This document shows, one piece after another, positions 1,002 through 60,815 of a DNA stretch of 64,000 nt. Source of the stretch: Rhina ancylostomus (taxonomy: Eukaryota); contig JARFYF010000017.1 in NCBI GenBank assembly GCA_030265395.1, forward strand, positions 26,260,856-26,324,855. The letters are read 5' to 3'. Within the stretch, counting starts at the first letter, position 1. Every line of letters begins with the position of its first letter. The notes beneath the pieces were generated by a model. That model searched no databases, was not told where the DNA came from, and saw only the letters and a list, made by a program, of their open reading frames with translations. The translations under genes were made by a program, and so were the position numbers.

Positions 1002-1655
1002 CACAAGAGACTGCAGATGCTGGAATCTAGAGTGAAAAACAAGCTTCTATATGAATTTAGCAGGTCAAGCAGTGTCCGGGGAAGCAAAGGGATAGTCAAT
1101 GTTTCAGGTCCAGGCCCTGCATCAGGACTGACAGTGTAGAGGGAACATAGTCAGTATATAGAAATGGGGGGGGGGAAGGGGGGAGTCAGAGGCTGGCAGG
1201 TGATTGGTGAACCAGGCGAGGTGAGGGATAATGGGCAGATGGAGCCACATGAGGAAGGGGGAGGAGGGAGTTTTGAGACAGAGGCTGATGGGCGATAGGT
1301 GGAAACAGGTCAGGAAAAAATATGAGCAGACAAAGCCAGGTGGGAAGAGTGAACAGGGGAGAAAGAGACAGAGGCTAGAAGGTGATAAATGGAACCAGAT
1401 AAAAGAGGGATGATGGGCCAAGGGAGAGGAAACCCAGGTGGATAGGTGTGTGGGTAATGGGCTGATGAAACCAGATAGGGGAGGGTGATGAATCTAATTA
1501 ATGGGGGAAGGGGATCAAAGAGAGAACAGGACCAAGGTGGACCTGCAGGAGTGGCAAAGAAACACAGAGGGTGTGTGTTACCTAAAATTGGAAAACTCGA
1601 TGTATGGACCATTGGGTTGTTGACTACCCTGGTGAAACATCAGGTGTTGTTCTTA
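1002..1655 (-). mobile_element. Penelope-like element 3' end: GIY-YIG ORF C-terminus, 3' UTR and terminal repeat (pLTR) with degenerate hammerhead core
   Basis: Minus strand ~1652-1578 reads EQHLMFHQGSQQPNGPYIEFSNFR*, matching the vertebrate Penelope ORF end (EQHLIFRLGSLQPxGMNIEFSNFR*). Then a pyrimidine-rich UTR and CAGTC-CTGATGC-AGGGCCTGGACCT-GAAA-CATT-GACTA (rc of 1093-1130). Confidence 0.85.
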
Positions 1656-1686
1656 AAGCAGTGTTACGGAGGCAGAACGTGGAAGA

Positions 1687-1779
1687 GAACATAGAAAATT
1701 AGGAGCAGTAGTCAGCCTTTGAGCCTGTTCTACCATTCAAGACGATCATAGCTGACCCTCTATTACAATATCATGTTCC
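1687..1779 (-). mobile_element. CR1 LINE 3' end fragment
   Basis: gaacatagaaaattaggagcagtag...gagcctgttctaccattcaagacgatcatagctga is the reverse complement of the elasmobranch CR1 3' terminus; it runs into an N gap. Confidence 0.75.
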
Positions 1780-2878
1780 NNNNNNNNNNNNNNNNNNNNN
1801 NNNNNNNNNNNNNNNNNNNNNNNNNNNNNNNNNNNNNNNNNNNNNNNNNNNNNNNNNNNNNNNNNNNNNCGTCTCCTCACCTCTGAATCGTCTCCCCTCA
1901 CCCATCGCCTCCCTCCCACCCCACCCCTCATCTCCCTCCCACCCCACTCAACTAAGTAAAACATCCTCCATGCATCTAGCCTGCAAGCTCTTGGACATAG
2001 ATATAAGGCAGCGAGGGAGGTAAAGGCAGGAAAAACCCATCAAGGTAGTTTGGGACAGGATCACTGAAGGGGTGGAAAACATTGAATTTGAAATAACGGG
2101 GCATGGGAAGCCATCAGAGATCAAAGACAACAATATTAATTGAAATCTACCTCCATTAGAATACCACTACCAGTAGAAGAATCCAAGGAAATATGTGGAA
2201 CCCAGGACATAAAAAAACAGCAGTCAACGTCACAGATAAGCTTTGAAATAGATTTGCACCTTTTGCTAAAACCACACAATGGTGATAGATGGTAGACTAA
2301 TCACAGAATAGAGCTTTACCATTTGCTAAGTTTTTTTTACATTGAAAATCTTAAGTTTTGAAAAGACTCAAGTAGGAGAGAAGGACTTATGTCTTAAAGA
2401 TGAGACTTTGGGTTTACATTTTCAACATATCAAGGCAGTCTGCTCCAGTACAAGGCCCCTTGCTGAGAACACAGAAGTTTTATTCGACTTCAAAGTTTCT
2501 TAGTACTCAGATGTATGTATCAAAATCTATCGGGTTAGGATATGAAATTTCCTGATCTGGGGTTTTCACATGTACTTGGCAAGTGAACATGGAAAAACCA
2601 CCCCTCATGTTCTATTTGTGAAATCTTAAAAGGTTTTGACATTTAGAGTAATTTTTAATTGGTAACAGTGCTAACTGTCTTCTAAGCATTCTTTTATTGC
2701 CGTAAAACTAATCACAGACAAAACCACATTATTATTTCTAAAATATATTCAAAGTAGTTTGTACTTTTCAACCAATTAAATTAAAAGCTTTGTAAAATCC
2801 AAGCGCTTTGTACTAATTAGTCAGACTAAGCCAAATATAAAATTAGAAAATACATATATATTTCCCATGGGATGTTTA

Positions 2879-3120
2879 GGAACATAGAAGTTAGGAGCAG
2901 AGTCGGCCATTTGGCCCTTCAAGCCTGCTCTGCTGCTCAGTACGATCACCCAAATTCAGTACCTTGTTTCTGCTATCTCTCTGTATCCCTTGACCCCGCC
3001 CCCCCACCCCTCAGCCCCAGGAGCTATATCTAAACTTTTCTTGAACATAGTGATTTGGATTCAGCTGCTTTCTGTTGTTGAGAATTCCACAAGATCATCA
3101 CATCTGGGTGAAGAATTTTC
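2879..3120 (-). mobile_element. CR1 LINE 3' end fragment
   Basis: gaacatagaagttaggagcagagtcggccatttggcccttcaagcctgctc...gagaattccacaagatc...ctgggtgaagaatttt; same family as 1687 and 21088. Confidence 0.8.
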
Positions 3121-3329
3121 AGTTTTTGGTGACGTTAGAAATATGCTATTGCATGGGTAAGGATCATAAAGTTCTCAAACACATTGGGCCATACATGAGT
3201 GAAGTGAATGTGTGAAGAAACACCCACAAATAGATGTACTAACTGTGCCAATAAGAGGAAAAGGATACATATGTTTCTAAATTCATATCAGTTAATTATG
3301 TTATAAATCAATTTATATTTTAACTTTTC

Positions 3330-3600
3330 CCTTCTTATCAGATTCCATGATCTGCAGCCTTCCATCACCTCCCAGCCTCTGTTGATATCTCCATCCTTCT
3401 CTCACCAACCTGACTCCATCTGCCAACCCTCACCTATCCCTTTCCAGTTCTCGCCTCACCTTGCCCCCTCTCCTCTTTACACTTGCTATCTCTTCTCTAC
3501 TCTTTCAGTCTAGTTGAAGAGTCTCAGCAGTAAATAATACCATGCCTACACCTTTTAGGGCAGAGCTGAGCACTGAATCCAAATACTGCAGGATTTAGCG
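3330..3600 (+). mobile_element. Degenerate Penelope 3' UTR/pLTR fragment
   Basis: Pyrimidine-rich tract (cttatcagattccatgatctgcagcc...cctcccagcctctg) ending in a decayed core, cagtctagttgaagagtctc; resembles the reverse complement of 1090-1400. Confidence 0.55.
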
Positions 3601-4017
3601 AGTGCACAGCTGGAGAAGCACGGGAAAAGATGACATTGGAGACCTGGGAACAGCCTGTCCATTTTACCAAAGATGGCCTGAAGTTCCCAATGAAAGTGCT
3701 GGACTCCTGTATAGATATATTGCAGCACAGGAAGCCAGCAAGCCAGAAAATGAAGCAGCAGTAAGAAGAAGTGTACAGAGAGATTCATGTTTAAACCAGG
3801 CAGAGAGGTTACCCTCACAAGGCAGGTCAGGGTCAATGGAAACAGCAATAATTCCAATTTACTAACAGCTGTGTGGCCCTCTCATACTTAACACTACACC
3901 AATACTCAGACACACATTTCAAGACTTACACACTTCCAGCTATTCCAACACACTAAGCTGCACTCTCACCCCTCCCATTCAAGAGAGGATGCAGCACAAC
4001 TGCAGACTACAGCGTGG

Positions 4018-4260
4018 AGACACAAGAGACCGTAGATACTGGAAGCTGGAGTGACAACAGTCTGCTGGAGGAACTCAGTGGGTTGGGCAGCATTTATGGA
4101 GGGAAATGGACTGTTGACATTTCAGTTTGAGACCCTTCATCTGGACTGTGTCAGATAATTCCAGTCCAGATGAAGGGTCTCAATGTGAAGCATCAATTGT
4201 CCATTTCGCTCCATAGATGCTGCCTGACCCATTGAGTTCCTCCAGCAGATTGTATTTTGT
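4018..4260. mobile_element. Fold-back Penelope-pLTR-derived miniature element with two inverted hammerhead-like cores
   Basis: Arms ~4055-4148 and 4162-4260 are imperfect reverse complements around a 13-nt loop; the left arm has an extra ~34-nt tail. Possible degenerate TSD: tgcagactacagcgtgg (4001-4017) / tgcaggctgtagcagtgg (4261-4278). Confidence 0.85.
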
Positions 4261-4459
4261 TGCAGGCTGTAGCAGTGGGCTGGTGGGAGGCCCCGTTTTA
4301 CCTATTGACTTTCACCTGTAGGGTAGAGTGCTCACCATCCTATTCTTAGCCAATGGCACTGGAGGGTCAGAGTTAAGATCATCAACAGCAGTTTTTCTTC
4401 TCACATCTACTCTGCCCTCATCCCACAATTTCTTCTACCTTTCAAAATTCATATAGTTT

Positions 4460-5300
4460 AGCCTTCCCCATCCCTTCTCTTCACCATGACAACAAAGCAT
4501 GGGACTAACTCTGCAGAGTACAGCAGGATTCTCCCCGAGGTCTCCAGGAGGCAGTAAGGCTTCTCGATGATGCTGTTGGCAGGCTCACTATTCTCAGCAT
4601 GGCAATGATTGTGACTGTACTCTGTGGCATGGTCAGAACCCTGGGCTACACTGAGCATCCATGAACAGAGGATGTAGGTTATGTCACTCAAGAATCCAAA
4701 GGTTCACCTGATCTAGTGACTGAGTCCTGTGTGGTTCTTGGAATCACATTTTTGACCAGGATCTTCTCTTCCTTCATTAGTCATGCATTTTCTGTAAGTT
4801 CCGCAAGTGATGGCCTTTTGGGATCATAAACAGCTTTGGAATGAAATATGAACACCACTTGGGAGCAGTCTTTCACTTCTAAATCTTCAGAAATCCACAG
4901 TCTGTCCAAGCCTGGCTGGCCCGTGTTGCTGGAGGATATTTGCTCAAGGAGAAGAGATGAATTCTCCTCTCCTTCAGTAGAGAGCCTCCATGACATTGTG
5001 AATACATCAGTGTGCTGCAAACTGCGAGACGAGTCATAAAACAGCTGCTGCTGTCTGCAGTGATTCAGAGGCTGATACATGACACACAACCTCCTCTACA
5101 GACACAGGAATCCCAGCACGGGTGCATACTTACAGCTCAGCCTGAAGGAAGTGGCAGAACTCTGTCACCACTGCCCTTGAAAGTCTTCGCTAGCCCAGAA
5201 ACATTGTTGCTCAGATAGGTGCAAATACAAGACTACTTCCTGCTGTTCAGACCTGACTTCTTCTGGCCCACTGTGTGTTAGTTGCATCAATGTACACCAG
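4460..5300 (-). pseudogene. Old L1/Tx1-type ORF2 AP-endonuclease remnant
   Basis: Minus-strand fragments occur in the expected order: FRLSCKYAP (cf. RLxxVYAP), GLDRLWISEDLEV (cf. SRIDRxxxS), then VKRRDG. Heavily frameshifted. Confidence 0.4.
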
Positions 5301-6179
5301 TTTGACAGGTCAGATTTGAAATGCGGGTTGCATGACAGTTGATGGCAAATCTATGTACTCTATTTGCTTTACAGATGTGAGTGATATGCATGGAACAGCA
5401 TGATCAAAATATTTAGTATGTGCAAGATGCTTTGTAATTAGGAGGGACTGCAGGGTAGGGTGATGGGATAGATATACAACATTAAAAAGAACAACATGTA
5501 CGTAGGCTGGTCATCCAAACCTCTACTGGCATGCTGACAGGTTCTTTGTATGACTGTTGTTGAGGTTGTTGGGGAAGTGAGTAAGGGAATTCTTGCTAGC
5601 TTTGCGCTTGCCGAAAACAACTCATTTCAACTTGGTAGTCTTCAGTGTTTTGCTTAATGTGTGTACTCAGTGGCTAAGGATTGGTCTGGAAATGACCATG
5701 TAGAATTCTTTGTGGGACTAATTTTCATTTCTGTAAGAAAAGAATTGATGTGATTTAATGAGAATAGTTTGTATTAATAATATGTCCTTATCAAAGCTTA
5801 CAAAACCTTCTCCTCTGTAATTTGGAATTCAGAACAACGTCTGCTGGAGCCCAGCTTACCAACACTGCCTCGGTAGAAACGCCTAAACCCTGTCTCCAAC
5901 TTTGGATGTGTAGTGCTTGACCGTTGTTCTAGAAACTGCTGTCAGTACTCTCTCATTTATGAGTTGAGCAAGTTATTGTTAAGTTTGTTCTACTTAATTT
6001 TTTTTGTCTCCAATGTAATATTCATAGCATTTCACTGTGGAATTGGAATGGATTTCCTCATTCACCAGCCTACTCAGATCTGCTGGCCCTGCAATTCCCC
6101 AGAGTTTATGAACTCTCAGCTGGGTCCACAATCAAAGTGGAGAAGTTTTGGCAGAGGAGAGGGAGAGGAGAGGAATTAG

Positions 6180-6292
6180 CTGATGTGGAAACACTCAGCA
6201 GGTCTGGCAACATCTGTGCAAAGGAAAAAAGAGTTAACATTTCAGGTCAAACAGCCTTCATCAGAACAACATTTTCTGTTTTATTTCAGCTT
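6180..6292 (-). mobile_element. Penelope-pLTR-derived repeat with hammerhead-like core
   Basis: rc of 6233-6267 is GTT-CTGATGA-AGGCTGTTTGACCT-GAAA-TGTT-AAC; the family motif ggaaacactcagcaggtctggcaacatc is present. Confidence 0.75.
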
Positions 6293-6769
6293 TCTTGATT
6301 TGTTGTTCTTGTCTGCAGATATTTGATTTCCAAACAGGGTAGCTCTTCCCTTCCCTGGTTTTCACATATCCTAACCACTGTCTGCATCAATCAGCACTGC
6401 TTGGAATAAGAGGGTTAGTCTAAAATTCCACTGTACTTGGAAGAATGGACCCAGGCTGATACTTTAGTGGCAGTCAGCGGGAGTCAAGGTGACACAGCTC
6501 CCTCAGATAACCATGCATTTAACCAACCAGAGACTGGAACTCCAGCATTGTTCTCATCTTGCAGAAGTGGTGGGTCCAGCACACACATGTTCTGCTCCCT
6601 TCTGTATTGTAAATATGCACCTAGTTACATTATCCTTCATGGCTACATCTTTCTTCAATTGTTCTTGTACAAAATCATGAACTGAGAGAGGGAGATACCA
6701 GAAAATTTTGCTCACCCTGCCCTTGAAGCTGTTGGAAATTATACTGAATGTAATACATTAAATGGAAAG

Positions 6770-7597
6770 TTAGCCACAGGAAGAAAGATTGATGGAGTGA
6801 GTGGGTTGAGCGAGGTGTTCTCAGTGTTGAGGTACGAGATGCAGGTGGGGCCTATAGCTGACTCCTCAGTCACAGCTGTCACCCAAGTCATCTTCTGTTT
6901 CACTTGGGGATCCAAGATGCATGTCTCAGAGAATGGAGGGAAAAACATGCCCAATATTGTCCTCATCCTTATGGCCATCTTTGTTTGTGGCTGATCAAGC
7001 TGTGCATAGAAACGAAGTATGCAAACACCAAGTATCACTACATGCTGAGGTTCTACCTGTCCCCAGTGTAGCGAACAATGGGCCTGGCCTCATTCCTACA
7101 CAATGTTCCATGCAGTAGGACTTTGCTGCACCATCTGTCCTTGTAGAAAAGTTCCTTCAGAAAAACACCTTTAACCACAAGTCCATCAGGCAGAGTTCAG
7201 CACAGAACCGCAGGAAAGAGACACAATGGATCCTGTGGAATGGCTTCTGAACCGACTGTCAAAACCATTTGGCAGAATACATCATTGCTTAAACTCAGTA
7301 ATAAGCACAAAGAACTTCTTTTACTCGCAGTAAGAGTGACTTTCTCCTTCAGATCCTTCCTGTACGGTCTGAGTCTCACTCCCAACATATGGTGCCGTCA
7401 AGATGGCTGTGATGAGGATGAGACCTCTTTGTGCACTGTGTGTTTACAAAGAAGGTCTGGAAAAGGATGCAAGGATCCTTGTCAAGGTTCATCCCTAACA
7501 GTTGTGTAACAGAAGACACTGGTCTATGGGCTGTTCCCAGGGACACACACTGAGACAACCATCAAGTGCCACTAGAAGATCATCAACTTGGTGAAAG
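6770..7597 (+). mobile_element. Tx1-clade non-LTR retrotransposon, ORF2 post-RT region and C-terminal Zn-knuckle (disrupted)
   Basis: VTQVIFCFTWGSKM...ENGGKNMPNIVLILMAIFVCG; TVKTIWQN...LSNKHKEL...WCRQDGCDEDET...CVFTKKVWKRMQ. Homologous to the minus-strand copy at 26370-26920. Confidence 0.8.
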
Positions 7598-9117
7598 NNN
7601 NNNNNNNNNNNNNNNNNNNNNNNNNNNNNNNNNNNNNNNNNNNNNNNNNNNNNNNNNNNNNNNNNNNNNNNNNNNNNNNNNNNNNNNNNNNNNNNNNTGA
7701 CTGATGGTCCCTTTAAATAATACACTTGCAGTGTTTGTGCCTAACACTCAGATGTAATTTTCTCTGTGGAATCTACAGTGAGTGCTATTTGCATAGATGT
7801 GCAACAATTTCACAGGTATGGCGTTAATCATGTGTTGGAGAAGGATTAAGACATTACCCCCATGTGACCTCTCCATGTTTCAGGCAAAACAATCCTATCT
7901 GATTCAATTATGCCTAAGGAGATAATATCATTTGCGGTGATTCTTGTGTGAAACAAAATGGCACCAGGGCTTTGGAAATTTAATTTGGTGTGTGCAGCTA
8001 CTCCAATCACACATCCACTGATGTATCTGCCCCAGAGCAATAACCCATTGGCTTTTTTTGCTTTAGTTTTCCAATTATAATTGAAACTGGAAATATTGGG
8101 ATGTAGGATGCCTTCATGTGAATATGAGGCATTTTCCCAGGATGTGGGATAAAATTTACCTCCATTTGCCAAATAGAAATGGTGTAGAGTAGGAGGGTGA
8201 GTTATTTGATTGCCTTTTGAGTTGAGTAATAGCGTGTGCCATGAAGCAAAGAAAAAAATAACCAAACAAATGGGAGCTGGAATAAAGCTATGTTGTCCTC
8301 TCTCCTAATTATAACAATGATTGTGTTTTGTCAAGATACTGGAAGTTCCATAAATAAGTAAGGACCAATTTTGGTTAAGATTTCTTTTTCCCCAAAGAAT
8401 ATGTTGAATTACCATGTAATAAGCATTATCACATTTTTGTTGCCCTTTAAGTGTTTGGTAATCAGGATGCAACTTTACTAACCATAGTTGGATTGTATTG
8501 GGTACAAATTATACTAAGTAATGTAAATGGACTCCGAAAACAAGCAGAAATGAGAAATATGATGCTCTGGGGACTGCTCTTATTTTATTATTTATGAAGG
8601 AGAATATCCCTTTTAGGACTCTTGGGAATCTGTTATTGTGAACAAGAACAAGGATTTTCATGATGTCAAGACTGCTTTGAAAAACATGATTATTTGGACC
8701 TCACAATGTAATAGTTTTATAGAATGTGCAAAAATGATGTTTTTCACCATTTCTTTTCCAGAATATTTGACTAAATTGAATTAAAAGTAGTCACTGGTCC
8801 TATATAATTGGAGTTTGCAGTTTTTACTTCAGAAATAGGTATTTAAACTGTCCATGAATTCTATTTTATAATTTACAGTGGCTTAAACAACATTTTCTGT
8901 AGCCATTTTTGCAGCATTAGGAGACAAAACTTTAATAGATTCAAAAGTTTTAGTGTGCAAGAAAATGAATGTCTAAATTCAGCTTGTATAATTATACTCC
9001 ACTCATGAAGGAAGATTCCTCAACACAGTTGGAATCTGTGGACTAGAAATTGTAAAACAACAGAACAGGTTCATAAAAGCAACACTGAATGGGGGAAGCA
9101 GACAAGGTTGGTGCAAG

Positions 9118-9287
9118 GCACACCAAATGCTGGAGGAACTCAGCAGGTCAGGCAGCATCCATGGAGGGAAATGAACAGTTGACAATTTGGGGTGAGACCC
9201 TTCATCAGTGCTGCATGTCCTGCTGAGTTCCTCCAGCATTTTGTGTGCATTGCTCCAGATTTCCAGAATCTGCAGTGTATCTTGTAC
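9118..9287. mobile_element. Compact fold-back Penelope-derived element with perfect 15-bp TSD
   Basis: CAAGGTTGGTGCAAG occurs at 9103-9117 and 9288-9302. Inverted arms aaatgctggaggaactcagcagg / cctgctgagttcctccagcattt; rc core CTGATGA-AGGGTCTCACCC. Confidence 0.9.
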
Positions 9288-12200
9288 CAAGGTTGGTGCA
9301 AGTGTCCCGAGTAGCAATATTCTCTGATGCTCAAGCCCCAGGACATCCTATGTGATGGCAGAGGGCTTGCACAGTGCACCTTGCACTAAAGCCTTCTTTC
9401 ATTGAGATCCTAGCATTATGGAGAATAGTGATGAAGGATGTCAGTTGAACATTAGACTAAGTGGGAAAGGAAATTTGCAGGTGGGGAGGGTGGGGTGGAA
9501 TTGCCAGAGGTGATGACTGCAGAGTTAGAGATGATTGCTGGAGAAGGTGATTGCTTCAGATCAATCAGAGAGATGATCTGGAAGAGCATCAGGGTTGTCT
9601 GTTGGGGTTGGTTGAGGAGTCAAATAGGTTGGGGATTAAGGGGAAGATGAGTAAACAGAGATAGGATTAGCCAGGAATTGGTTGGGGAGGTAAATTGTGT
9701 GATACTCCACAGGACATTGGCAACAAGGTGATGGTCTCATGCTTTTCCTATTCTACTTGCAAGAAAATGGGTGTCTTAGGCTCCCTGACAGGACCTTTAT
9801 GTAATTCCAAAGCAGGACTCAACCCTCCTGCTGTCAGAGTGTGGGTTTAGCACCTGTCTGAGGATGAATTTTAAACCCCTCCCTCAGTTAGCGATGTTGT
9901 AAAGATTGGCGTTAGGGCATGGGTGTGTGTGTGAAGGGACCTTAAATTTCTAGCTTTAAACATATGCAAGGACATTGATCACCAATTGCACCTACCAACA
10001 TCCAGCTCCATAGAAGCTAATGAAATCCAACTTGTGCTCAAGACATTTATTGTGAGCAACCAAAAATTAATTTTTCCCCAGCTATTTTTATCACACATGC
10101 TGGGTGACCTTTTTTTGGAGGGGCTGGGAGGTGGAATTAAACACAGATTATCACTTGTAGAATAATGGATTGTCTGGGGGCAACAACTGAGACCTGATAT
10201 TGGTGGTGGCTGACATGAAAACAAGTGGAAGAGTTGCATACAGGAGCAGTGAAGCTTAGCTCAGCAAAGACACTTGTTACTACACAAGGCATATTTTTTA
10301 ATGTATTTAATTATTTAATAGATTGCCAGCATTGTGTCACACAGATTAGGCCTCCGTTTGCAGCAGAGACAATGGGGCAATTTTTGTATAATGTACTGTC
10401 AGGCACGAATTTCAGATTTTCACTCTGTCACCTTACTACTTTGCAGCTGCCAATCAAGGAAGAAGCCTAAATTGCGGGTTAACGATATGCAAATTATGCA
10501 TGGTGGTGGTGTAGAAGTCTGCCACAGAGAAAATTTAAAATGGCAGAAAAGAAGAGAAAATAGATATAGAGTCAGCACTTACTTATTGTGGAGATAGACT
10601 TAGGTGTGCTTGCAGGCACAGAGAAGAATTTGAGAATCAAGGGCTCAATGTGGATAAACAATCATAGAGAGGAAAAAGATCAGTAATACCCCACAGGTCA
10701 AGAGATCACCAAACATTAGATGAAAATGGGTTCTGTTCATGCATGGTGTGGAGGGCACAAAACATCCAATATATATTAAAAGTGGAAGAAAATACAGTAT
10801 ATAAGGAGTCACTTAAGATGAGAAGTGAAAATCCAAATTCCACAAAGAAGGTAGGAAAGCCACTGAGGTAGGTACTGAACTAAATGTGTCACAATCAGAA
10901 GTTGCTGGCAGAAATCTGAAGACCACTATTGCTGTAGTAAATCCTGACAAAGGCAGAGATATACAATTGCCCATTAGATAAACTCATCATTGCACTTTTT
11001 AAAATAGCATCATGTTTATTTAACCAATATAAATTGTGTTAATCGCATAGTAACCAAAAATGATTTTCTGAACTTTTATTTATCCTGAAAAAAGCAAGAT
11101 AATCTTTTGACAATGTAAAACCAGTTATATTTTTCAAAATAGGTTCCACATTTAAATAATGACTGAGTCTCACTCAAAGTAAGTGAGGCTTGACGGCTCT
11201 GAATAATTATTTATAAAATTCTCTTGGTCTTAAGTGATTCATCTCTTGCCTGTCGTGCATTTCAATATTGTTAAAGGGGCAGTGTTTTTATACACAGATG
11301 ACACAATTGCTTGTGACTTTACAGATTACTTTTTTCTTGGTTTTAATAAAATCAATTAACTCAATACCCTCTCTATGCTGTGTGGCTGAGGGGTTGATAA
11401 ACTCATGGGCTAAAATTAATGCCCATAGTTAGGGAAGGGGACAAAATCAGTTCGTCTTCCTTCCACAATTTCCAAATAAAATCTGCTGGATAGTGAGTGA
11501 GGACAGTATTACATAAGAGCGTGATATTGACAATGGCTGATAATGCTCATAATTCCTTTTCTGGAGTTATAGGGGCAGTTCCATGATATTAAAATACTTG
11601 AAAGAGATACCATGAGCTCTGTCATTATAACACATGCACCTGTTTCACCTGTTTCTGCTGGAAGTATGGAATCATGGAATCATCCCTCATGCCCCAGTAT
11701 GAGTCACCCTCAATAGGGAGGCTCAAGAAAACTGAAGATGTGTGTGGTCAGAGATGTAAGGAAAAAACATCTTTTGCTTCACAAATATGCCACAGATCAA
11801 AGTGTTATTGTGAGAAACTGGCTTTCTGGTTGTGCCTAGATGTGCATCTGTGCTAAGATCCTTAATATTAAAACATCTCTTCAACAACAAAAGCGCATTT
11901 CTTTTTTTGTTTCTGTTTAATTAATTTGAACAGGCAGAATGATATATTTTTCTAGTGCAGGTATAGAAGAACCATGGTCAATGATTTTTTTCCTTTGTGA
12001 AACAGGCCTGGAGTGGAAATGCCAATCTATTTATGAAATAATTAAAAAAATCAAGAAGTATAAAACACAAATAATGCAAGAAAAACATTTATTTTGGTAA
12101 AATTTATATTTTGAAACTGTCCAATTAAACATGTACTGATCACCATATCTGGCTTCCTGAATTATTCATTAAATACAAATAAAAACAAAAATGATAACTT

Positions 12201-12758
12201 TGATAAAAAAGATTTGCAAGCAAAGTCTAATAATTATGCCACAACAGTTAATTTGACTCAACTAGTACCCATAATATGCAAAGTTATGCAAATTAGTTTT
12301 TTTGCTTCAAGCTATACCCTGTAAATCAAAGAATCACACCATTCAAACTGACTCAGAAATGCTGTTTACTGACATTCATAACAATGTTACAAAATATGCT
12401 TTTCTTATTCGTTTTTGAATAATATAAGCTGTAACTAATTTGGAATAAACTTCAGTGCTACATCAAATTCACCACTGTTGAAATTCACCAAGGTGCAAAG
12501 GTGCTCCAGAAGTTTTCACATCTCTGTACCTATTTTTTAAAAAACTTATCAGTATTATTGAAAGTCATTTAATTTTTGAGCATTTCTTAAGTGGTATTAT
12601 ATGAAGAAATATAACTTTATAAGATTTTGAAATATATGTATTTAATATTAATTGTCTGAATATTCAATCTGGCAGCAATCAGTGAGTTTAAAATGTTTTT
12701 AATTTTCTTAATAAAAATTAACAAGAACTATGTTATTTAACATTAGTAGTTGGTGACT

Positions 12759-12813
12759 GGCATGGACTCTATGGGCCAAAGGGATTGTTTCTGTGCTGTA
12801 TGACTCTATGACT
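12759..12813 (+). mobile_element. CR1/HE1-type 3' tail fragment
   Basis: ggcatggactctatgggccaaaggg...tctgtgctgtatgactctatgact is the 3' stem-loop and terminal repeat of CR1-family elements. Confidence 0.65.
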
Positions 12814-13009
12814 TTGGTTCTGTGAAATTCCTGTCTCTTCCTTCCTAGCCTCCAACAAGAAGATCTCGGCCAACATCATGTCAGCACAATTTTAACGTTG
12901 TTGAAACCATAATCCTTCTCCATCATCTTGTTGAGATTGCTAACGCTGGGAAATTTTGGTCATAACAGCAAATTTACATCTGCATTGGTTAGACATATGA
13001 ATAGTTCTT

Positions 13010-13208
13010 AAAAAAATTACTAGAAACACTCAGCAAGTCAGGCAGCATTCATGGAAAAAGAAACACAATCAATGTTTCAGAGCATTTGATGAAGGGTCTT
13101 TGACCTGAAACATTGGCCGTATTTCTATCTCTGTCAAGGATGCCTGACTTGCTGAGTGTTTCCAGAATTTTCCGTTATTTAAATTTCAGATTTCCAACAC
13201 TTGCATGC
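13010..13208. mobile_element. Fold-back Penelope-derived element with hammerhead-like core
   Basis: Inverted arms gaaacactcagcaagtcaggca / tgcctgacttgctgagtgtttc; core TTGATGA-AGGGTCTTTGACCT-GAAA-CATT at ~13086-13114; tail on the right arm. Confidence 0.8.
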
Positions 13209-15149
13209 CAATAATTTTAGTTGCTTCTGTCCATACAGCACAATTTTTTTATATTCTAAATGCAAAAATGAGTGCAGGTATATTTAAGCATCTATTTCAA
13301 AGGTAAATGTGTGTGCACTTCCAACATTTTGTTTACTCTCTTGTTTTTGCACAGCCATTTTCAATTGCTTACTGCCTACAGAAACAGCCTAAGACTCAAT
13401 TGCAAAGGTCAAGTGGATCATTTTCTTGTCATTAAGGTAATTAATTTGGATGACTTCAACTTACATTTGACTGGATTTTTAAATATGCCACTGGCAGCAC
13501 TACTGCTCCACCAGAAGTTAGCGATTTGGTGTTGATTTGGCAAATGAACTTACTGGCATATGTTTCTTGTGCTCATCTGCAGGGAGATGTGGCTTTTCAG
13601 TTTATAATTTAATCAAAAATTTGTGTTTGTATTGCAAAAAGGGGAGATCTATGTTCCTGAAAGATGAGCAGAGGTTGAATTCTACAGTATTCTGTAATTT
13701 TATCAGATGCACTTAACAGAAGCTGATGTTTCATTTTGGTGACCAAATCACAATGTTTTGCAGCAGACATGTTATCAGATTTTCTGTACATTGTGACATT
13801 TGGAGAAATGTGCCATATGCATTGTAAGCAATTATTAAGTTGTGCACTAAGCATTGAAAATTTTGTAAATTAATCTGTGTTTCATACTTCATTACAATCG
13901 AGCTAATTTTGGAATTTCTCATGTTAATTGATTAGTTGTCTTATAGATGCAGATTAATGGACCCTTGCCTCTTAGAATCCTTTGTGGTGAATTTAATTGT
14001 AGGACTCCTGTTTTTGACCAGTCCATTGAAAATTGATTATTGTCCATTTCATATCAGTTGTCTCAGTGTTTGGAATAAAGGACATTCAATTAAAAAAATG
14101 CATCTTTATTATGTTTCACAGCACAACTGATTTGATAATTACCTTTGAACTTCATACCTTGAAATAAAATAAATGTAAGTAATCCAGAATAAACGGTGAT
14201 TTCAATGTATTTTCCCCAACACTTATTCCTGTTTGCTGTTTCTGCTTATATTCTTCATATAATATGTACAGCACATTAAGTATGCCTGGATGTTTTCTCA
14301 AAGGAAAAAAAGAACCTTATAATTTTCATGTTCTGATCTCAGAACACGCACTAGAATAAACCTGTAATTTTCATCCCCTAATGTCATTCATACAGTTTTT
14401 AATTACAAATACTGTCACCATCTGCTCACCAGTGCAGGCTACTTACCTGCATAACCTGCTTATTATAACAGTCAATTCATAAACTATATCTCAATAAAAC
14501 CATCAAGCTCTATAAAAATAAGTATGCCATTTATATAATATAAACTGATTAGTATTGAGCATGGAACATGGTGCCGACATGCAATATGAATTATGCGGAG
14601 AATGCTATCACATGTCTAGTGGAAAATAAAGCTAAAATATACAAACAGGATTTTGAAACCCATAACAAAAAATGGTTCTAAAATACAGCATTTCTCTAAA
14701 AGTGGAATTAATATAAAGAATCTCTCAGGTTTTAAAATCTAGCTCAACCCAAATTCAATTGCCCTTAATTGAGATGCATTTTATTACTGTGGTGTCTTCT
14801 AATTTTGTCTTACACTGAATCATTTCACATGTGGGTTGGGTTGTCCCTTTACAAAGTAATGACAAATATGCAGAAGGACAAAGAGTTCCTCTGCATCACG
14901 CAGCTGCATTTTTATGTTTTGAACATACAAGTCTTGCAGGATATTGTTTGATTGTATGAGCCATGGTGGTCTAACAGGCAAGGAATTGCTGCCAGAAAAG
15001 TGACACAAGTTCATCTTACCACCATCATCCATCAATACAGTGGAAGAATCCAATACCCAGTTGCACGTTTTCCAGTTTAGTGCTAGTGCTGCCTTCATGG
15101 CAGCATCCTTGTATCTGAATCTGAACAGTACCTGTGCAGTTCTTATTCT

Positions 15150-16996: not shown

Positions 16997-16997
16997 T

Positions 16998-17190
16998 CAT
17001 AAGAAAAAGATGCAGTAGTAGGCCATTTGACCCCTCATACCTGCTCCACTATTCAAGAAGATCATTGTTGATCTTTCACTTCCTTATTAACCTTATAATT
17101 CCTTACTATCTATGAATTTATCAATCAAAAAACCCATCTGATGTTGCACACCATTCTAGGACAAGGAGTTCATCATTACTTCCTGGGTAT
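16998..17190 (-). mobile_element. CR1 3' end fragment, tail-to-tail with the preceding copy
   Basis: cataagaaaaagatgcagtagtaggccatttgacccctcatacctgctccactattcaagaagatcattgttgatc. Confidence 0.65.
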
Positions 17191-19344: not shown

Positions 19345-19456
19345 AAATAATACAATGCTAAAAATCCAAAACAAAGAGCTAAAAATACTCAGCAGATGAA
19401 GCAACCTCTTTGAAGAGAGAAATATACATCATTTCAGGTCAATAAACTTTCATCAA
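19345..19456 (-). mobile_element. Degenerate Penelope-pLTR-derived repeat
   Basis: aaatactcagcagatgaagcaacctctttgaagagagaaa...atttcaggtcaataaactttcatcaa (rc TTGATGA...GAAA). Confidence 0.55.
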
Positions 19457-19735: not shown

Positions 19736-21087
19736 ATTCACATTCCAGTACAGGTGAATTTGATGGGCTGGGTTTGAAGCTACATTTCAGCAGCTGCTAA
19801 GCCATGAATTTTTATTTAAGTGGCTCTCTGTATGAAACCCAATGTTCATGACGAACACTGGGCCTTAGTTAAAACTTGTCTAAATCTGGATTCCACTATG
19901 AAGAGGGCAGACTGAGAGCAGGGGAGGTATCCACAGCTGAACAACACACTACTTGTTCAAACTCAGCTCGGCCTATTTGTCTTTCTCATTAAACCAAAAT
20001 ACAGAAAAGTATATTTAGTAAATTTGTTTTTAAAGAACATAAGGGACCAGCTTATGATTCCAATGGCTGTAACAGTGGTAGTTTATTCCCTCAGCTGTTG
20101 GCCTTGCATCATTAGATATTGTTTGTTCTTTGGTCAGGAATTCCCTGATTAAAAGCAATAAGTTTCTGAGTGTGAGCAGAACAACTGCTGCACCCACCGC
20201 AGTGGGGCAGGACACTAGGAGATTGACTCAGTCATTCTTAATTGACAGGATCTTTCATGATAATGATAGTGTAACAATTCACAACATCAGAGAAAAGATA
20301 TCTGCGAGTTGTGATACAGCCATAAAACCCAACGTTCTCTACAATGTTCTTACTTCATCTTTACAGCTCTCCCATTTTCCAAAACTAACCTACCTCCCTT
20401 AACCTACAGAAGAGGTTAAACCACCAGTTTATTAATAGAAACACAAATGTCTAACATTTATGATAAATTCTTAAGGCACTTTGATATTGCCATGTGTTAT
20501 GTTTGGGTTATAAGAGAGGGAGCTCCACATTTGCTCTCCACGGTTACAATGTCAGAGAGGAGCTCCTTTATCCCGGCAGGAAGTTCATTGCAGTTCTGCT
20601 GCTGCGGAAGGATATTTTACCAACAAAAGGTGGGAGGCAGCACATGTTAGTAACCAATTTAAACAGACATTACCATTGAGTGAGCACTCTTGGTTTAGTC
20701 TATCTTTAGAAACCTCCATTGTACGATTTGAAGGCCATTTTTAATCAACATCACAGCAAAGAGCAAAAGTGTGTGAAATCATAGTAATTGAACACGACCA
20801 TATAAGCCGGTGAGAGTCAAGTGTCATCACTTTCCTTCTATATCAATACCTGTTGATGGACCTCAGCATCTCTGTCTCTTACAATCATCTCCCCAGCCTG
20901 TGCTCAGTAAAACTCAATTCATATATCACTCATAAGACTTGCAGGATTATTACATGCAGTGTAGCCAGGGGTGAAGAAAAGTTAGATTTCTTTCTGGTAT
21001 GACCATATCACAGACAAAGTTTTGGCCACTTTCTTACTGCCACACTGTACCATCCCATACCCGCTTACTTTCACCTCTGAACCATGG

Positions 21088-21620
21088 GAACATAAGAAAC
21101 AGGAGCAGGACTAGGCCAGTTGGTCCTTCAAGCCTGCTCCACCATTCAGTAAGATCATGACTGATCCATTTTGGGCTCAATTCCACTTTCCCCTGCTCTT
21201 CCTATACCCCTTGACTCCTTTGAAGTTCAAATGCCTGTCAGTTTACACCTTGAATATATTCAATGCCTCCACCTGGGATCGAGAATTCCAAAGATTTATA
21301 ACTTTCTGAGAATAACTTTATCCTCCCCTCCATCTTAAATGGGCAATCCCTTGTTCTGAAATTATGGCTCCGGTTCCAGATACGTCAATTAAGGGAAACA
21401 TTCTCTCAACATTCACCCTATCAATCATTCACAGAATCTTATCTATTTTGTTATAACCCCTTATTTTTCTACACTAAATTAATATGGGTCCAACCTGCTC
21501 AACCTTTCTTCATACGTCAACCCCTCATTCCAGTAGTCAATCCAGTGAACCTCCTTCACACTGCCTCCAATGCAAGGATGTCCGTTCTTCAATGTGGAAA
21601 ACAAATGTGGCCACGATTCT
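21088..21620 (-). mobile_element. CR1 LINE 3' fragment
   Basis: gaacataagaaacaggagcaggactaggcc...gagaattccaaagatt...ccagtgaacctccttcacactgcctccaatgcaag is the rc of a CR1 ORF2 end and 3' UTR. Confidence 0.85.
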
Positions 21621-21644
21621 ATTAGTTTTAAAATAGTTGTGGAA

Positions 21645-22974
21645 AAAATAGGACTGGCTCACAAGTTAAAGTCCTAAATTGAGGCAAGTCAAATTTTGAT
21701 GGCATGAGACAGGAACTTGCAAATGTTGATTGGGAGAGGCTGTTAGTAGTTAAAGGGACATCTGGCAAGTAGGAGGCTGTTAAAAATGAGACAGAGAGTG
21801 TTCAGGGCCATTGTGTCTCTGTTAGAGTGAAGAGCAAGGCTGGCAGTATTAGGGGACCCTGGCTGAAGAAGGATATTGAGGCTGAGGTTAGGAAAAGGAA
21901 GGTGGTATATGTTAGGAACAGGCAATTAGGATCAACCGAATCCTTTGAGAGATGTAGGAGTACACTTAAGAAGGAAATCAGGAGGGCAATAAAGAGGACA
22001 CAAAGTGTCTTCGTCAGATAAGATGAAGGAGACTCCTAAGAGATTCTGTAAGTATGCTAAGAGCAAAAGAGTAACTGGGGAGAGAATGGGTCTCCTTAAG
22101 GATCAGTGTGGTTGTTTGTATGGAGCCACAGGAGATGGGGGAGGTCTTAAATGGATATTTCTCATCTGTATTCACTGTGGAGAAATTCATGGAAGCTAGG
22201 GAATTCAGAAAAGAGAAAAGTAATATCCTGAAACATTTTGACATTATGGAAGTGTTAGTGATCTTAAAGATGGATAAATCCCTGATCAAGTGTATCCTCA
22301 GACTTTTTGGCAGAGATCTGATAGAGATTGTTGTACCTTAGCCACAGGTGAGCTATCGGAAGACTGGAGGGTGGTTAATGTTGCACTTTTATTTAAGAAA
22401 GGCTGCAAAGACAAGCCAAGGAACTACAGGCCAGTGAGCCCAACATCAGTGGTGGGAAAGTTACTGGAGGGGATTCTGAGAGACAGGAAATAACTGCATC
22501 GGAAAGGGAGGACTAATTAGGGATAGTCAGCACGGCTTTGTGTGTGGGAAATCATATCTCATGGAATTTGATTGAGATTTTTGAAGAGGTGCCAAGATGA
22601 TTGATGAGGGCGGTGTGGTAGACATCTACATGGACTTTAACGAGGCTTTTGACAAGGTCTCACATGGAGGGCTGGTCCAGAAGGTGAGACCACATAGGAT
22701 CCAGGATAAGGCAGATAATTGGATGTAAAATTGGCTTGGTGGATGGAGAATGAGGGTGGGAGTGGAGGGTTGTTTTTCAGATTGGAGGCTGGTGACTAGA
22801 GGTGTGCCACAGGGATCGCTGCTGGGTCTCCTGTTGTTTGTCATATATATATTAACAATTTGGATGAGAGTGTAGGTGGCATGGTTGGTAAGTTTACAGA
22901 TGACACCAAAATTGGTGGTGTGGTGGATAGTGAAGAAGGTTGCCGGAGGTTACTTATCTAGATTTAGATCAACT
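21645..22974 (+). pseudogene. CR1 LINE ORF2 reverse-transcriptase region, disrupted
   Basis: LATGELSEDWRVVNVALLFKKGCKDKPRNYRPVSPTSVVGKLLE; SQHGFV; YMDFNEAFDKVSH; GVPQGSLLG; KFTDDTKIGGVVDSEEG. Multiple stops and frameshifts; ends at a gap. Confidence 0.92.
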
Positions 22975-52054: not shown

Positions 52055-52350
52055 TCTTAAGGACATTCCAAAGTGCTTCTAAACCTGTGAACTACTTTAT
52101 GGATAAATAGATTAATTTATTCCAATCAGGGCCCTCCAATGAACAGATGCTGTGAATGACCAGTTAATTTGCTCTTTGGAGGTGTTGACTGAATGTGTCT
52201 ATATTACCCCTCTTTGAATAGTGTCTATTATCTCCACCTGAATAGATATCTAAAGACCACACTTCTACCAATGCAGTGCATTGCTTGAGCCTTAATTATA
52301 CCTTTAGGCCCAAGGGTGGGCCTTGAGTCTGTGGTATTGAAAGGTTATAC
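52055..52350 (-). mobile_element. Deu-domain SINE, degenerate
   Basis: aggacattccaaagtgctt...aatgaccagttaatttg...ctctttgaatagtg...tccacctga...caatgcagtgca. Confidence 0.55.
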
Positions 52351-56110: not shown

Positions 56111-56195
56111 ATTCTAAAGCTCTAATTAGTGGTGCCAAGCTCTCAAGTAAGCTGGGCACACATTGGAAAATACGTTTGTAGACAATTAAATGTAG

Positions 56196-57232
56196 GTCAA
56201 ATCAAGTCAAGTCACGTCAAGTGTAGTATCATGTGCCCAAGCACGGTGAGGTACTGGTACAATGAAAAGCTTCTTTGCAGCAGCATCACAGGCACATAGG
56301 TTTAGATAAACACAAAATATAAATTACACATACAAGACAGTGAAGAGAAGAAAGACTGTGCAAAACAAGACGTTAGTGCTAAAAAACACAACCAGAGAAA
56401 AGCCCATGGTTGTGCAAGAAGTGGTCTGCCGTGTTCCATTGCTGAGGTAGGACTGGGATTGTGCAGGTCAGTTCCAGAACCTGATGACTGTAGGAAAATA
56501 GCTGTTCTTGAACCTGGTGGTGTGGGACTTCAGGCTTCTGTACCTTATGCCTAGTGGCAGCAGCAAGATCCAGATGGTGGGGATCTTTGATGATAGATGT
56601 TGCTTTCTTGAGGCAACGCCTCCTATAGATGCTGTCAGTGGTGGGGAGGAAGGTACAGAGGCCCAGATCTTGGTGGGTTGATGATGTTTGGAGGGGATGA
56701 TTGTGTTGAATGCCAAGCTGTAGTCAATGAACAGCAGCCTGACGAATGCATTACTGTTGTCCTGATGATCTGGAGCAGAGTTGAGAGCGGTGAAATAGCA
56801 TCTGCTGTTGCTATGTTGTGGTGAAAGGCAAATTGAAGGGGACGCAGGTTATTTCTGAGGCTGGAGTTGATTTGCGCCATAACCAAGCTCTCAAAGCATT
56901 TCATTACAGTGGATGTAAGTGGTAGTCATTGAGGCAGGTCACCATGGTCTTCTTGTGTACAGTACTATAGATGCCCTTCTAATGCAGGTGGGAACCTCAG
57001 ACTGCAGAAGCGAGAGGTTGAAGATGTTGGCATTGGTTTATTATTATCACGTGTGCCGAGGTACAGTGAAAAACCAGTCTTGCATACAGTTCGTACACCC
57101 TTGAATACACCAGACAGCTGGTCTGCACAGTCTTCAGCACTTGGACAGGTACACCATCTGAGCCAGACACATTTTGTGGGTTCATCCTCTTGAAGGATGT
57201 TCTGATGTCAGGCTTGGAGACTGAGATCACAG
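56196..57232 (-). mobile_element. Rex1/Babar non-LTR retrotransposon, truncated and internally deleted
   Basis: ISVSKPDIRTSFKRMNP..SGSDGVP; MKCFESLVMAQINSSLRNNLRPLQFAF; AFNTIIPSK; RYRSLKSHTTRFKNSYFPTVIRFWN; (CTTGA)n-like 3' tail. Confidence 0.88.
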
Positions 57233-57313
57233 TGAATATCTTAGGTTATCAGGATCACACACCAGAAAGTGGGGTTGAGTGATGAAGTGAGAGAGTATAA
57301 TGCTCGGCCTGAT

Positions 57314-57365
57314 CCACTGAAAAATCTGTGGGCAGTGGATCACCCACTAAAAAATCTGTGGGTAG
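57314..57365. repeat. 30-bp-period direct duplication
   Basis: ccactgaaaaatctgtgggcag / ccactaaaaaatctgtgggtag. Confidence 0.85.
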
Positions 57366-59341
57366 ATTCTTCCAGCCAAATGTTTTCTGCTGTGGGCAGT
57401 GAAACTCTGCTATTTTCAGTGTATTGTACCTCTCTGGGTATTTCCCTTCTTGAAACTTGTATCATTTCACTTCCTTGTATTATTTTGACTGCAAATAAAT
57501 TCGAACAAGTAATTGAGACTCTGTGCATTGGCCTGGAAAAGTAGTATTTCCCAGCTTTATAAAGAAAGCAGATGCATGCTGCCCTAAATAGAAAAAGAAT
57601 ATATAGATTACATGGAGGAGGACATACCTTTTGCTTTATAAGTGGCTAAGCCAGTTTATGGAAATCATTACATAGTCATAGACATGAGATTAAATGCCTG
57701 GTTAAAACTTAAGCCACAGTAAACATATTGTTACAATGGCTCTATATATTTTTGTAATCTGACTCTTACTGATAACAAATCCAAGCTAACATTTCCCTGA
57801 TGATGAGAACTTTGAATTCTATTATGAATTACAATGCGAAATCTACACAGTTATAAAATAACAGTGTTGCAGTCCTTTGGCCTTCCATGTACCCAGACTG
57901 TCATACTTCGTATGTGAAAACACTTTTAAGAAGAATTGAATTTAAAAGGTTAATTGTAAGTTCATTGTAAATTTGCATGGTGCTTTTAAGAATATTATTT
58001 AAAAAGCCCATATGAACCGGTAGCAACGGAAGTTAAAGACACCAGAAAAAAATGTGAGTGGCAAGCCAGGACAGGAAATGTTATTAGGCTTTGACCCAAA
58101 TGGCATAGATGAAATGTGTGTGCTTATGTTGCAATGACATGTTCTTTTAACAATGATAAACTGCAAAGTGCTGAAAATGAGTTTGCTTATCCATGCTTGC
58201 ACCTTCAAAGTTTTCACTTTTTTTTACAGTACTTAAGAGGTTATCAGATTGTTTTTTGATCTCTGTAAGGCACAAGTGGCAACAAATTATGTTACCTACA
58301 TTATAAGGAAAGCTTCACAAGGATACAAAGAATAGTTTACATAGAAAAGCAAAAAGGGACAATCCAAACAACATTTTTCATTAAAATATATTTTACAGCA
58401 TAGTTCAAGTCCCTAAAGCCATCATATAACCCTTGTTTGATACTGTATTCTTTACAACATTACACATTGTTCAAATATTGAATGTCTTTGTGAGTTCCAT
58501 CAAAACACTGACACTCACTGATACTCCCACAATGCATTCACCCCACGCACACTCATCTCTACACTTGTCTGCATGTTTTCTTTTTAAAGTATACTTAATC
58601 TTTTGTCCCACGCAATCCCTTTCACCATCTCACAACACCATTTCATCCGCCTTGAGTCTCTCTTGTCTCAGCATTACTGTCAGCAACAGTTTGCTGTCTG
58701 TCCAACAAATCTTCCTTCCAAGCCTTAAGAAACCTCCAGAACTACTGTCATGGCAGGATTTCCACCTGTTTACTGACAGAGGAAACACAAGGCTGGATAG
58801 CAGAGGTGGAAGTTTGGTTAGGGGTGAGTTATTCTAATTCATTCACATTTAGCTGCTTAGGGTGTTTCTTGCTGGAAGTGATGCAAGGCCACAAAATTAT
58901 GTGGCATATTTTCCTTCATTACATTCATTATTAAATTGATGAAGTGTCAGAACACAACAAGTGTTCTGCATTGGTGGGATATGTGTTTCTCTGTTAAAGG
59001 TATAGAGGTCACAGCAGAAGGTAGAATCCACGTGTCTGATAATCCCTAATATCAGGCTTTTCCCAGTATTATAAATGGCAGCAATGTTATTTTTATTTCT
59101 GCTCCCCCCTTTAAATCACTGCAAGTTTTTAGAAACTGTAGCAGCCACTTCACATTCCCTGCGCATTTCTCTATCAGTGACCACATTACCTGTATCCCAC
59201 CTAAAAAAACTGAACCTGCGATCTCTGTAGTGCATCCATGGTGCTACTATTTTGCATAACTTCTTTGTCTTTTGTTATGAAAGTTTAAATTGGTTTATCA
59301 ATATGGCTTAACTAATACTTCTCATTTCTCATATTTTCTCA

Positions 59342-59630
59342 TGACACGGAATGAGGCCAGTTGGCCATAAGATCTCTCTGCTGGTTCCTGGAGTAATCCC
59401 ATTCCCCCACATCCTATTCTTTTTCCTATTACTCCAATATCATTAGTATCTACCTACATTAGAGGAAATTTACAGCACCCAGCAACCAGGCTTTTAGGAA
59501 GTAGGAGGAAACTGGAGAACCCAGGGAAAATGCACACAATCTTACGAAAAACTTGCAAACTCCACACAGACAGCACTGGAGGTCAAGACTGAATTTTGTT
59601 CTTGTTGGAGTGTGAGGCAGCAGCGCTGTA
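59342..59630 (-). mobile_element. HE1 / V-SINE, near full length
   Basis: The rc has a tRNA-like head (gcgctgctgcctcacactcc), V-domain gtctgtgtggagtttgcaag...ctgggttctccagtttcctcc, and a CR1-type tail. Confidence 0.8.
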
Positions 59631-60687
59631 TGGCATGAGAGTTTGAAATGTGTTGTAGCCTGTATTTGATGGGATGGGATGGGTTGTTGCTACTAATGAA
59701 GGCATTAGAAGTCAGAGATCAAGTGTGGTGAAATACTTTAATTTTCTTTATTTTTCAATTTTTTTAAAAGTTTAATGCATTTTAAATAAATGTATTAATG
59801 TTCACATGTATTTAATTGTTTTCTAATTACTTACATAGGGAATACTGAAGGTGCATCAGGAGAGTCCAGGACAGGCTTTATTTCCAGTTGCTCACTGCCT
59901 AGTTTGTTTCTGTGCCCTGCTCTGTCATTGGGAGGCAGTGACACCGGCAGGACCTCACCGAGACATGTGAACAAATCATGTAATGTCTATGCAGTGCCAG
60001 GGTTATTTGGAATTCAGCCACAAGGCATGGGCCAGGCTAAATACCATCCAGCTCATTGACAGCATATTCCAAATTAGCGCCATTTGATGCAAGTTTGGTG
60101 GAGTACATTTTATGTATTTGCCACATAACATAATCAGGACCTGCAGGCTTTTGCCTAGCCCTCCATATATTTCCTATGGAAGAAACTCCTTGAACAAACT
60201 TGCACCCAGAAAAGGGGAAAAAATTGTGCTGTTGCTGCTGTAGAACTGCAAGGTCTGTGTTGATGATGATGCAGCAGGCAGCTGATGAAAGGCAGTCACT
60301 CTCCTGCTCATCCAAGCAGGTTTGAAGAGGTTGCTGGCAGATCTACCTCAGGTCTTCTCATTTGAAGCCGCTGAATTCAACCCCTAATGTCAGACGTCAT
60401 CACCTCTGTTCTAATTTTGGACCTCACAAGGAAATGAGCACTCCTTGACTTTCTCCCTCTGTTTTTGTGATAATCAACACATTGTCTTGATCACAGAAGT
60501 AAAGATAAATGCTTTGAGGCCTCGTGCCATTTTTGGGGATGCCTTCTCACCACATGTTGGTCTGATGTTGTTTCATTATTAATTAGCATTGGCTCGCCTG
60601 GTCTACATTGAGCTGAGTATGCGTGTGGGAAAGATCAAGTTTATTAATGGTGTTCATTCCTGCCAACTCCACATGCAGGTGGTACTT

Positions 60688-60815
60688 CCAAATGAAGGGT
60701 CTTGACCCCAAGTGTCGACTGTCAGTTTCCCCCCATAGATGCTGTCTGACCCATTGAGTTCCTCCAGCAAATTGTCTGTTGCTCCAGATTCCAGCATCTG
60801 CAGTGTCTGTGTCTC
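60688..60815 (+). mobile_element. Penelope-pLTR-derived repeat (solo arm with tail)
   Basis: CAAATGA-AGGGTCTTGACCC-CAAG-TGTC-GACTG...gagttcctccagca...ccagattccagcatctgcagtgtctgtgtctc. Confidence 0.85.

Follow-up and report, generated by a model that had tools for sequence, protein, structure and literature searches.

Endonuclease-bearing (EN+) Penelope-like elements (PLEs) of the Neptune and Nematis groups, as described by Craig et al. (PMC8557442), have one open reading frame (ORF) containing a reverse transcriptase (RT), a CX4CxxC linker and, at the C-terminus, a GIY-YIG-type domain. Their insertions show heavy 5' truncation, an adjacent inverted 5' copy, a tail of 30-40 bp at one end, a hammerhead ribozyme in the pseudo-long terminal repeat (pLTR) and target-site duplications (TSDs). 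These features, with the RT and the GIY-YIG-type domain as putative ones, were shared by a family of short repeats that we studied in Rhina ancylostomus, in a stretch of 64,000 nucleotides (the window; contig JARFYF010000017.1, positions 26,260,856 to 26,324,855 of the forward strand) and in genome samples. Unlike the described elements, most insertions of this family consist of a module of 100-140 nt alone with a sharp common 5' edge; the Neptune-or-Nematis assignment used here is provisional.

Minimal type I hammerheads of metazoan PLEs (Cervera and De la Pena 2014, PMC4209133), reported there in fish Xena, Poseidon and Neptune, resemble those of the present family in the CUGANGA core, an extra nucleotide before stem II, a G-C first pair, a palindromic stem III and their occurrence mostly as single dispersed motifs with some opposite-strand pairs. 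The family differs in a copy number that is, by extrapolation, about two orders higher, and in that subfamilies whose core has A at position 4 or C at position 9 amplified as well. PMC4209133 is not known to name sharks or rays; its supplements and those of the preprint cited next may list shark motifs. Non-LTR retrozymes (bioRxiv 10.64898/2026.07.22.740005; see also PMC7229834) are likewise ORF-less, carry a type I hammerhead, are akin to PLE pLTRs and occur as dispersed monomers. They are defined by head-to-tail tandem repetition with a complete ribozyme in two or more of the units (bioRxiv 10.64898/2026.07.22.740005), whereas the present family showed no uniform arrays, its pairs were head-to-head and most of its cores were broken.

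PAc, a Poseidon element of Anolis (PMC11167929), shares with the present family a hammerhead at the ORF start; two internal RT starts that define the tail, and cleavage and extension of both strands with uncleaved RNA as the template, would be further common features. The two belong to different clades, and here a conserved ATG lies downstream of the ribozyme. Microhomology of 2-5 nt between target and tail end was common here, whereas PAc priming is reported as non-homologous.

The repeats are decayed copies, 100-140 nt long, of the terminal module of EN+ PLEs, and were probably generated as by-products when the RT of the element primed internally, close to the start of its own mRNA, and ran off at the capped 5' end. 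Because class, ribozyme and insertion architecture had all been described before, there is little out of the ordinary in the original form of the finding. The one unexpected trait was the pile-up of 5' ends at the edge of stem I rather than at the cleavage site.

Profile hidden Markov models (nhmmer), together with BLAST searches with eight window copies, were run over the window. All 13 loci that a sequence-only reading had listed as sharing a unit of ~100-130 nt were matched, in 17 arms with E values from 6e-7 to 1e-56, and the reversed window gave no profile match at E<=1. On the sense strand the unit runs in the order stem I, core, stem II, GAAA, NNUH and stem I, followed by ~70 nt and then by an optional tail of ~35 nt. 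Head-to-head inverted pairs at four of the 13 loci (4018, 9118, 13010 and 28631) and the TSDs at 9118 and 47805 had been overlooked in that reading. The features of the window were as follows.

1000-1131, minus strand: tailed terminal module, made up of the hammerhead, a degenerate start-codon region and a tail of ~35 nt; nhmmer 186.5 bits including the untranslated region (UTR)
1132-1577, minus strand: pyrimidine-rich 3' UTR or pLTR of a PLE, common to ORF-linked loci
1155-1160, minus strand: TATA-like box TATATA, recognised by sequence, its start 31 nt upstream of 1129, the initiator-like A; family position -31/-30; putative promoter element
1578-1655, minus strand: final ~24 codons and stop of a PLE ORF (C-terminus of the GIY-YIG-type domain, from translation comparison); 5'-truncated
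3330-3536, plus strand: UTR remnant and broken 5' half of the hammerhead, from BLAST and profile matches; what follows downstream in the unit, ~100 nt, is missing
4014-4148, minus strand: tailed arm of a fold-back pair, subfamily A1, A at core position 4
4158-4275, plus strand: tail-less arm of the same pair
6180-6267, minus strand: subfamily B copy, strict hammerhead motif intact
9103-9302, both strands: fold-back insertion with a tail-less arm at 9119-9213(-) and a tailed, 5'-shortened arm at ~9200-9287(+)
9103-9117 and 9288-9302: perfect 15-bp TSD flanking the 9118 fold-back
13013-13215, both strands: subfamily B fold-back pair, 13018-13083(-) tail-less and 13085-13215(+) tailed
19345-19455, minus strand: heavily decayed subfamily B copy (23.1 bits, E 5.9e-7)
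28631-28946, both strands: subfamily B pair, a tailed 3' part at 28642-28709(-) and a tail-less unit at ~28840-28946(+) with a short UTR piece
30565-30668, minus strand: subfamily B copy, strict hammerhead motif intact
44185-44299, minus strand: subfamily A2 copy, tail-less, broken core
45819-45883, minus strand: 3' part alone of a subfamily B copy, without the hammerhead
47791-47917, plus strand: tail-less subfamily B copy (47803-47905) starting at the stem I edge, with its TSD
47791-47802 and 47906-47917: 12-bp TSD of this copy, 1 mismatch
60687-60817, plus strand: subfamily A1 copy with tail, broken core, starting at the stem I edge

Judged by its sequence, the unit is the terminal module of EN+ PLEs of the Neptune/Nematis type, comprising the hammerhead, the first ORF codons and the optional tail. 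The claim that the unit at 1002-1655 is continuous with the end of a Penelope ORF held, as the translation of 1581-1649(-) was identical at 16 of 23 positions to the C-terminus of the GIY-YIG-type domain at a locus elsewhere in the genome (L044). This stretch retrieved 29 further loci with varying upstream extents, the longest of which crossed the CX4CxxC linker into RT-like sequence. A CX2-5CxxC linker, here CX4CxxC, was located between the putative RT and EN at L036 and in the homolog P0001, with decayed forms at L045 and L033; a linker of this type is a mark of Neptune and Nematis (PMC8557442). GIY-YIG and CCHH motifs were visible in translations, and Pfam PF01541 was matched in one of 14 sequences scanned at an E value of 0.053, below the cut-off. 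The Pfam and PDB scans gave no RT or endonuclease domain above the cut-off, and a homolog search of the proteins returned 2 eukaryotic sequences. Motifs that we take to be marks of RT (the DKG region, GxAMG and YIDD) were present in broken frames at L045, L187, L190 and L193. The DKG motif also appears in PMC8557442.

The Penelope origin proposed in the sequence-only reading was supported. The module was found behind the ORF stop and its UTR as well as, in the genome, directly before the ORF N-terminus and in frame with it. Both placements were seen in L318/L323, where UTR and module are followed by the ORF N-terminus, by RT and by a downstream UTR that includes the 5' half of the module. No sequence beyond the tail was common to 186 tailed copies, and the ORF junction emerged only from a targeted search. 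Thirty loci were fetched with the sequence that follows the tail, and the majority sequence of the 25 alignable loci was an open frame that runs from MLPDLL, crosses the tail and enters the N-terminal domain. The module was directly upstream of the ORF N-terminus in 17 of the 30 loci; 6 of these began at the edge, 3 included UTR and 8 started further in. Since 6 of the 17 begin there, ORF-bearing copies end at the same edge as the short copies. The ORF stop (window ~1578-1583; L032-L059) overlapped a splice-donor-like CAG/GTAAC, and the UTR terminated in an acceptor-like tract.

The census sample consisted of 100 stretches, each of 10 kb and placed at a round coordinate of a large contig (863,897 non-N bases). 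Short models found 174 arms in this sample and none on the reversed sequence; extended models found 205 arms, which form 179 insertion units; 26 of these units are pairs. The density of ~207 insertion units per Mb extrapolates to ~4e5 units in the 2.2-Gb genome. Copies diverged by 8-21% from their subfamily consensus outside CpG and fell into at least five subfamily groups (A1, A2, A3, A4 and B). The two stem I groups recognised earlier, GTC/GAC and GTT/AAC, were separated on the tree described below by a branch marked 97 with an asterisk, and the GTC group subdivides further. The reported excess of ORF-less copies was confirmed, with at least 9 of the 205 arms tied to an ORF end within 800 nt. 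GIY-coding remnants were present in 17 of the 100 stretches and an RT core in 2. ORF-linked copies existed under the A12, A3 and B models and in both the GTC and the GTT group, and one subfamily B copy extended to RT (L131).

The minimal type I hammerhead with a palindromic stem III, as proposed earlier, is a property of the family consensus and not of most genomic copies, in which the core is broken. The consensuses have an ACGU stem III with a weak predicted duplex (-3.1 to -3.5 kcal/mol), and stem I covaries from GUC/GAC to GUU/AAC between groups. The A3 and B consensuses, and that of the A1 copies with U4 (11 of 31), have a canonical CUGANGA, GAAA and NUH core with stems I and II. The A1 majority (18 of 31 copies) has A at core position 4, and the A2 and A4 consensuses have C at core position 9, as does the window module at 1000-1131(-); these cores are non-canonical. 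Both core boxes were kept in 11 of the 108 sampled arms that span the motif, 5 of which also keep the stems. The strict CTGANGA/GAAA/NNTH motif, said to be contained in most window copies, was present at 2 of the 13 loci (6180 and 30566); the copies at 3330 and 45817 are partial, the first with a broken 5' half of the motif and the second without the hammerhead. An Rfam scan of the window gave no hammerhead match at E<=10, and its two plastid matches were a reflection of the 9118 fold-back. Subfamilies with A at position 4 (A1) or C at position 9 (A2 and A4; among the window loci, 1002, 4018 and 44185 have non-canonical cores) are, by their sequences, also widely amplified, and therefore lineages with non-canonical cores did amplify. 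The ribozyme is carried along uncleaved in this reading and is likely not the driver of copy spread.

To locate the 5' edge, we used the 176 uncensored arms that remained after 29 arms with N, a locus edge or a missing 3' part were set aside. The start lay at -5 to +4 relative to the A of stem I in 53 of them and within the 35 nt upstream in 11, and 28 reached beyond -40. A further 34 began at +9 to +24, and 15 at +25 to +34, around the cleavage site, which was rejected as the main 5' end as there was no peak of starts there. An alignment artefact was checked for by mapping starts from TSDs, independently of the models; the starts agreed, 10 of 13 being within -6 to +5 of the junction at the stem I edge.

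Long copies, which continue upstream of the edge, had a TATA-like or A-rich island at about -31 to -29 in all three models. At the edge itself they matched YYANWYY, the initiator consensus. In copies that start at the A and have a base other than C before it, G took this position in 45, 50 and 42 cases when the first 100 matches listed for each of three subfamily probes were counted by hand, against 25% expected; at non-UTR loci the count was 43 of 74 (p 2e-9). Long copies had no G in 36. The extra G was outside the TSD in 6 of 8 singles defined by TSDs and was also found at 17 of 29 junctions between two arms, which hold no target DNA. A TG in the target site as its source suited some copies (L147 and L261) and neither the six TSD-defined cases nor the arm-to-arm junctions. 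An untemplated 5' G has been interpreted as a copy of the cap in LINE-1 and SVA (PMC4859970), and a TATA box with an initiator is described in a rotifer pLTR that takes in the first ORF codons (PMC3846280).

The 3' ends fell into two classes, near +100 and +135. The 26 inverted pairs of the census compare with about 2 expected by random placement. In a set of 42 pairs (30 from the census sample and the window, 12 from search loci), only one arm carried a tail in 31 pairs against 21 expected, and inverted copies with one-sided tails were also seen on RT-bearing copies. A TSD flanked 9 of the 42 pairs against 0.3 expected. Both arms matched one subfamily model in 41 of 42 pairs, and chimeric pairs of two subfamilies were thus rejected as a general pattern. 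An RT-bearing copy at L194:4312-6479 had an A-type 3' end and an inverted B-type arm at its 5' junction; it is a possible two-template chimera, the sole case, with no TSD seen.

TSDs were detected in 13 of 126 cases against 0.9 expected; a stricter anchored search found only 4 in 50. The TSDs often opened with CA or CCA, the last bases of the tail (L014, L019, L027, L205 and window 9288), which suggests a microhomology of 2-5 nt at priming. A same-strand neighbour within 60 nt was found for 5 of the 205 arms, and no uniform tandem array was seen among these arms in the 0.86 Mb sampled, a result that covers the sampled stretches; clustered arrays elsewhere are possible. Inverted 5' arms, one-sided tails and TSDs of 9-15 bp are known PLE traits, and inverted 5'-truncated copies and one-sided tails of 30-40 bp have been reported (PMC8557442; PMC3846280).

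In the mechanism that we propose, the TATA-like box at -31 and the initiator, whose A is the stem I A, would launch a capped polymerase (Pol) II transcript. The endonuclease of the element would nick both target strands, and RT would start at either of two internal sites, ~100 or ~135 nt from the cap. Run-off would copy the cap as an extra G. A single short copy, or stub, would arise when one strand is extended, and a one-tailed fold-back when both are. The pairs with one tail and the two 3' ends fit the two-site, two-strand extension of PAc, for which two internal RT starts, extension of both strands and insertion by hammerhead mutants are reported in vitro (PMC11167929). Because they are without the -31 TATA box, the stubs would be dead on arrival and unable to propagate. 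The longer copies would be ordinary 5'-truncated cDNAs primed in the downstream module.

The sequence-only reading had proposed a self-spreading element like a short interspersed element (SINE) or retrozyme, that is, a short non-autonomous master that starts at the hammerhead, is itself transcribed and is mobilised in trans. The common 5' and 3' boundaries, which short copies do have in place of random truncation points, would fit such a master, as would the dominance of ORF-less copies, and non-autonomous PLE derivatives have been published (PMC8557442; bioRxiv 10.64898/2026.07.22.740005). A cap G would equally fit a short master made by Pol II, for instance a truncated copy that retained the TATA box. 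The copies did not, however, group by length. On a tree of 107 arms (75 edge and 32 long; 100 columns; too-short and intermediate arms left out), the edge/long label required 31 changes against 27.9 when shuffled, 495 of 500 shuffles needing as few or fewer, and both length classes were present in every larger clade, with no short-only clade. One edge recurs across all subfamilies and in ORF-bearing copies, and the likely promoter is upstream of the short copies. A pattern search of five consensuses for Pol III A and B boxes gave no match on either strand, same-strand neighbours were few and formed no uniform array, and PAc requires ORF sequence beyond the tail (PMC11167929). We therefore regard a short master as unlikely.

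It is quite improbable that the repeats are plain 5'-truncated cDNAs from the 3' module, with the pile-up at stem I caused by RT stalling, cDNA fold-back or exonuclease trimming to a protected ribozyme. Truncation with inverted arms is the PLE norm (PMC8557442), the edge is the base of stem I, and starts are scattered over several nt, with the further arms beginning at +9 to +24. An RT moving 3' to 5' would, however, reach the 3' side of the ribozyme first, whereas the peak is on its far side, and neither the extra G outside the TSD nor the -31 spacing is predicted. RNA processing could also set the 5' ends, through splicing of the UTR as an intron that ends at stem I or through self-cleavage of the hammerhead. 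The donor-like CAG/GTAAC at the ORF stop, the acceptor-like Yn-CAG at stem I, the Drosophila virilis precedent (PMC4209133) and the shoulder of starts across the cut site point in this direction. Against splicing as the main route, edge-start copies had no exon remnant upstream, and most retained the acceptor G or AG. A 22-nt probe for the spliced junction matched nowhere in the genome, compared with 201 matches of the unspliced donor, and an 18-nt probe had 2 against 1 for its control, with a hammerhead core after neither. Cleavage products would be without the core, yet most copies contain it. Processing as the source of the ends is highly improbable.

Several observations weigh against run-off from a capped start at stem I. 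Of 60 long A12 copies, only 19 had an exact TATA-like motif at -31/-30, and in group B the motif was weak. The C before the A was retained in about half of the edge copies, and about a fifth started after the G. A T preceded the extra G in 28 of 43 cases, which the cap alone would not explain; the G was found in only 9 of 30 fetched A2/A4 loci, and fillers of up to 29 nt occurred. The same stretch can also be read as a splice acceptor preceded by a branch point and a pyrimidine tract. The D. virilis Penelope promoter is in the pLTR and TATA-less, and an intron there has its end at helix I (PMC2377424, PMC4209133). No intact element was found; 20 fetched stretches of 10 kb held no intact ORF, and the long open frames of the search tables run through N. 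With 79 of 104 forks of the tree open, resolution within subfamilies was low, and with 100 columns young short-only lineages could therefore hide. We infer the promoter, the start site and the cap each from sequence. No prior description of the TATA, initiator and cap reading for PLEs was found in the main texts of a mostly open-access literature.

Within the window, the arms of the fold-back at 4014-4148 and 4158-4275 were 86% identical to each other, and no TSD was found for this pair. The arms of the 28631 pair were separated by non-element DNA. The inter-arm stretch 28709-28796 was an inverted, 80%-identical copy of 28323-28410, ~300 nt upstream, and is possibly a locally templated filler at the pair junction. 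Repeats from other families appeared in a self-BLAST of the window (6961-7285 with 26508-26847; 2879-2948, 16998-17073 and 21087-21166). Two stop-to-stop ORFs, at 22014-22949(-) and 56379-56848(-), may be fragments of a long interspersed element (LINE) reverse transcriptase, which they resemble.

The transposition cycle of PLEs and the role of their hammerhead are standing questions in the field (PMC8557442, PMC11167929). On balance, we lean towards the view that transcription starts at the first strand of hammerhead stem I, making the ribozyme the capped mRNA leader, and that priming in the leader turns most events into promoterless stubs, hundreds of thousands per genome, while lineages with non-canonical cores transposed well. 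The stubs would then preserve, as fossils, the start site, cap and two-ended priming of a Neptune-type element. The end statistics yield a concrete and testable model, with a start at stem I, a copied cap, short copies as by-products in cis and cleavage dispensable. If true, this model would account for the occurrence of PLE hammerheads mostly as single dispersed motifs without SINE-like masters.

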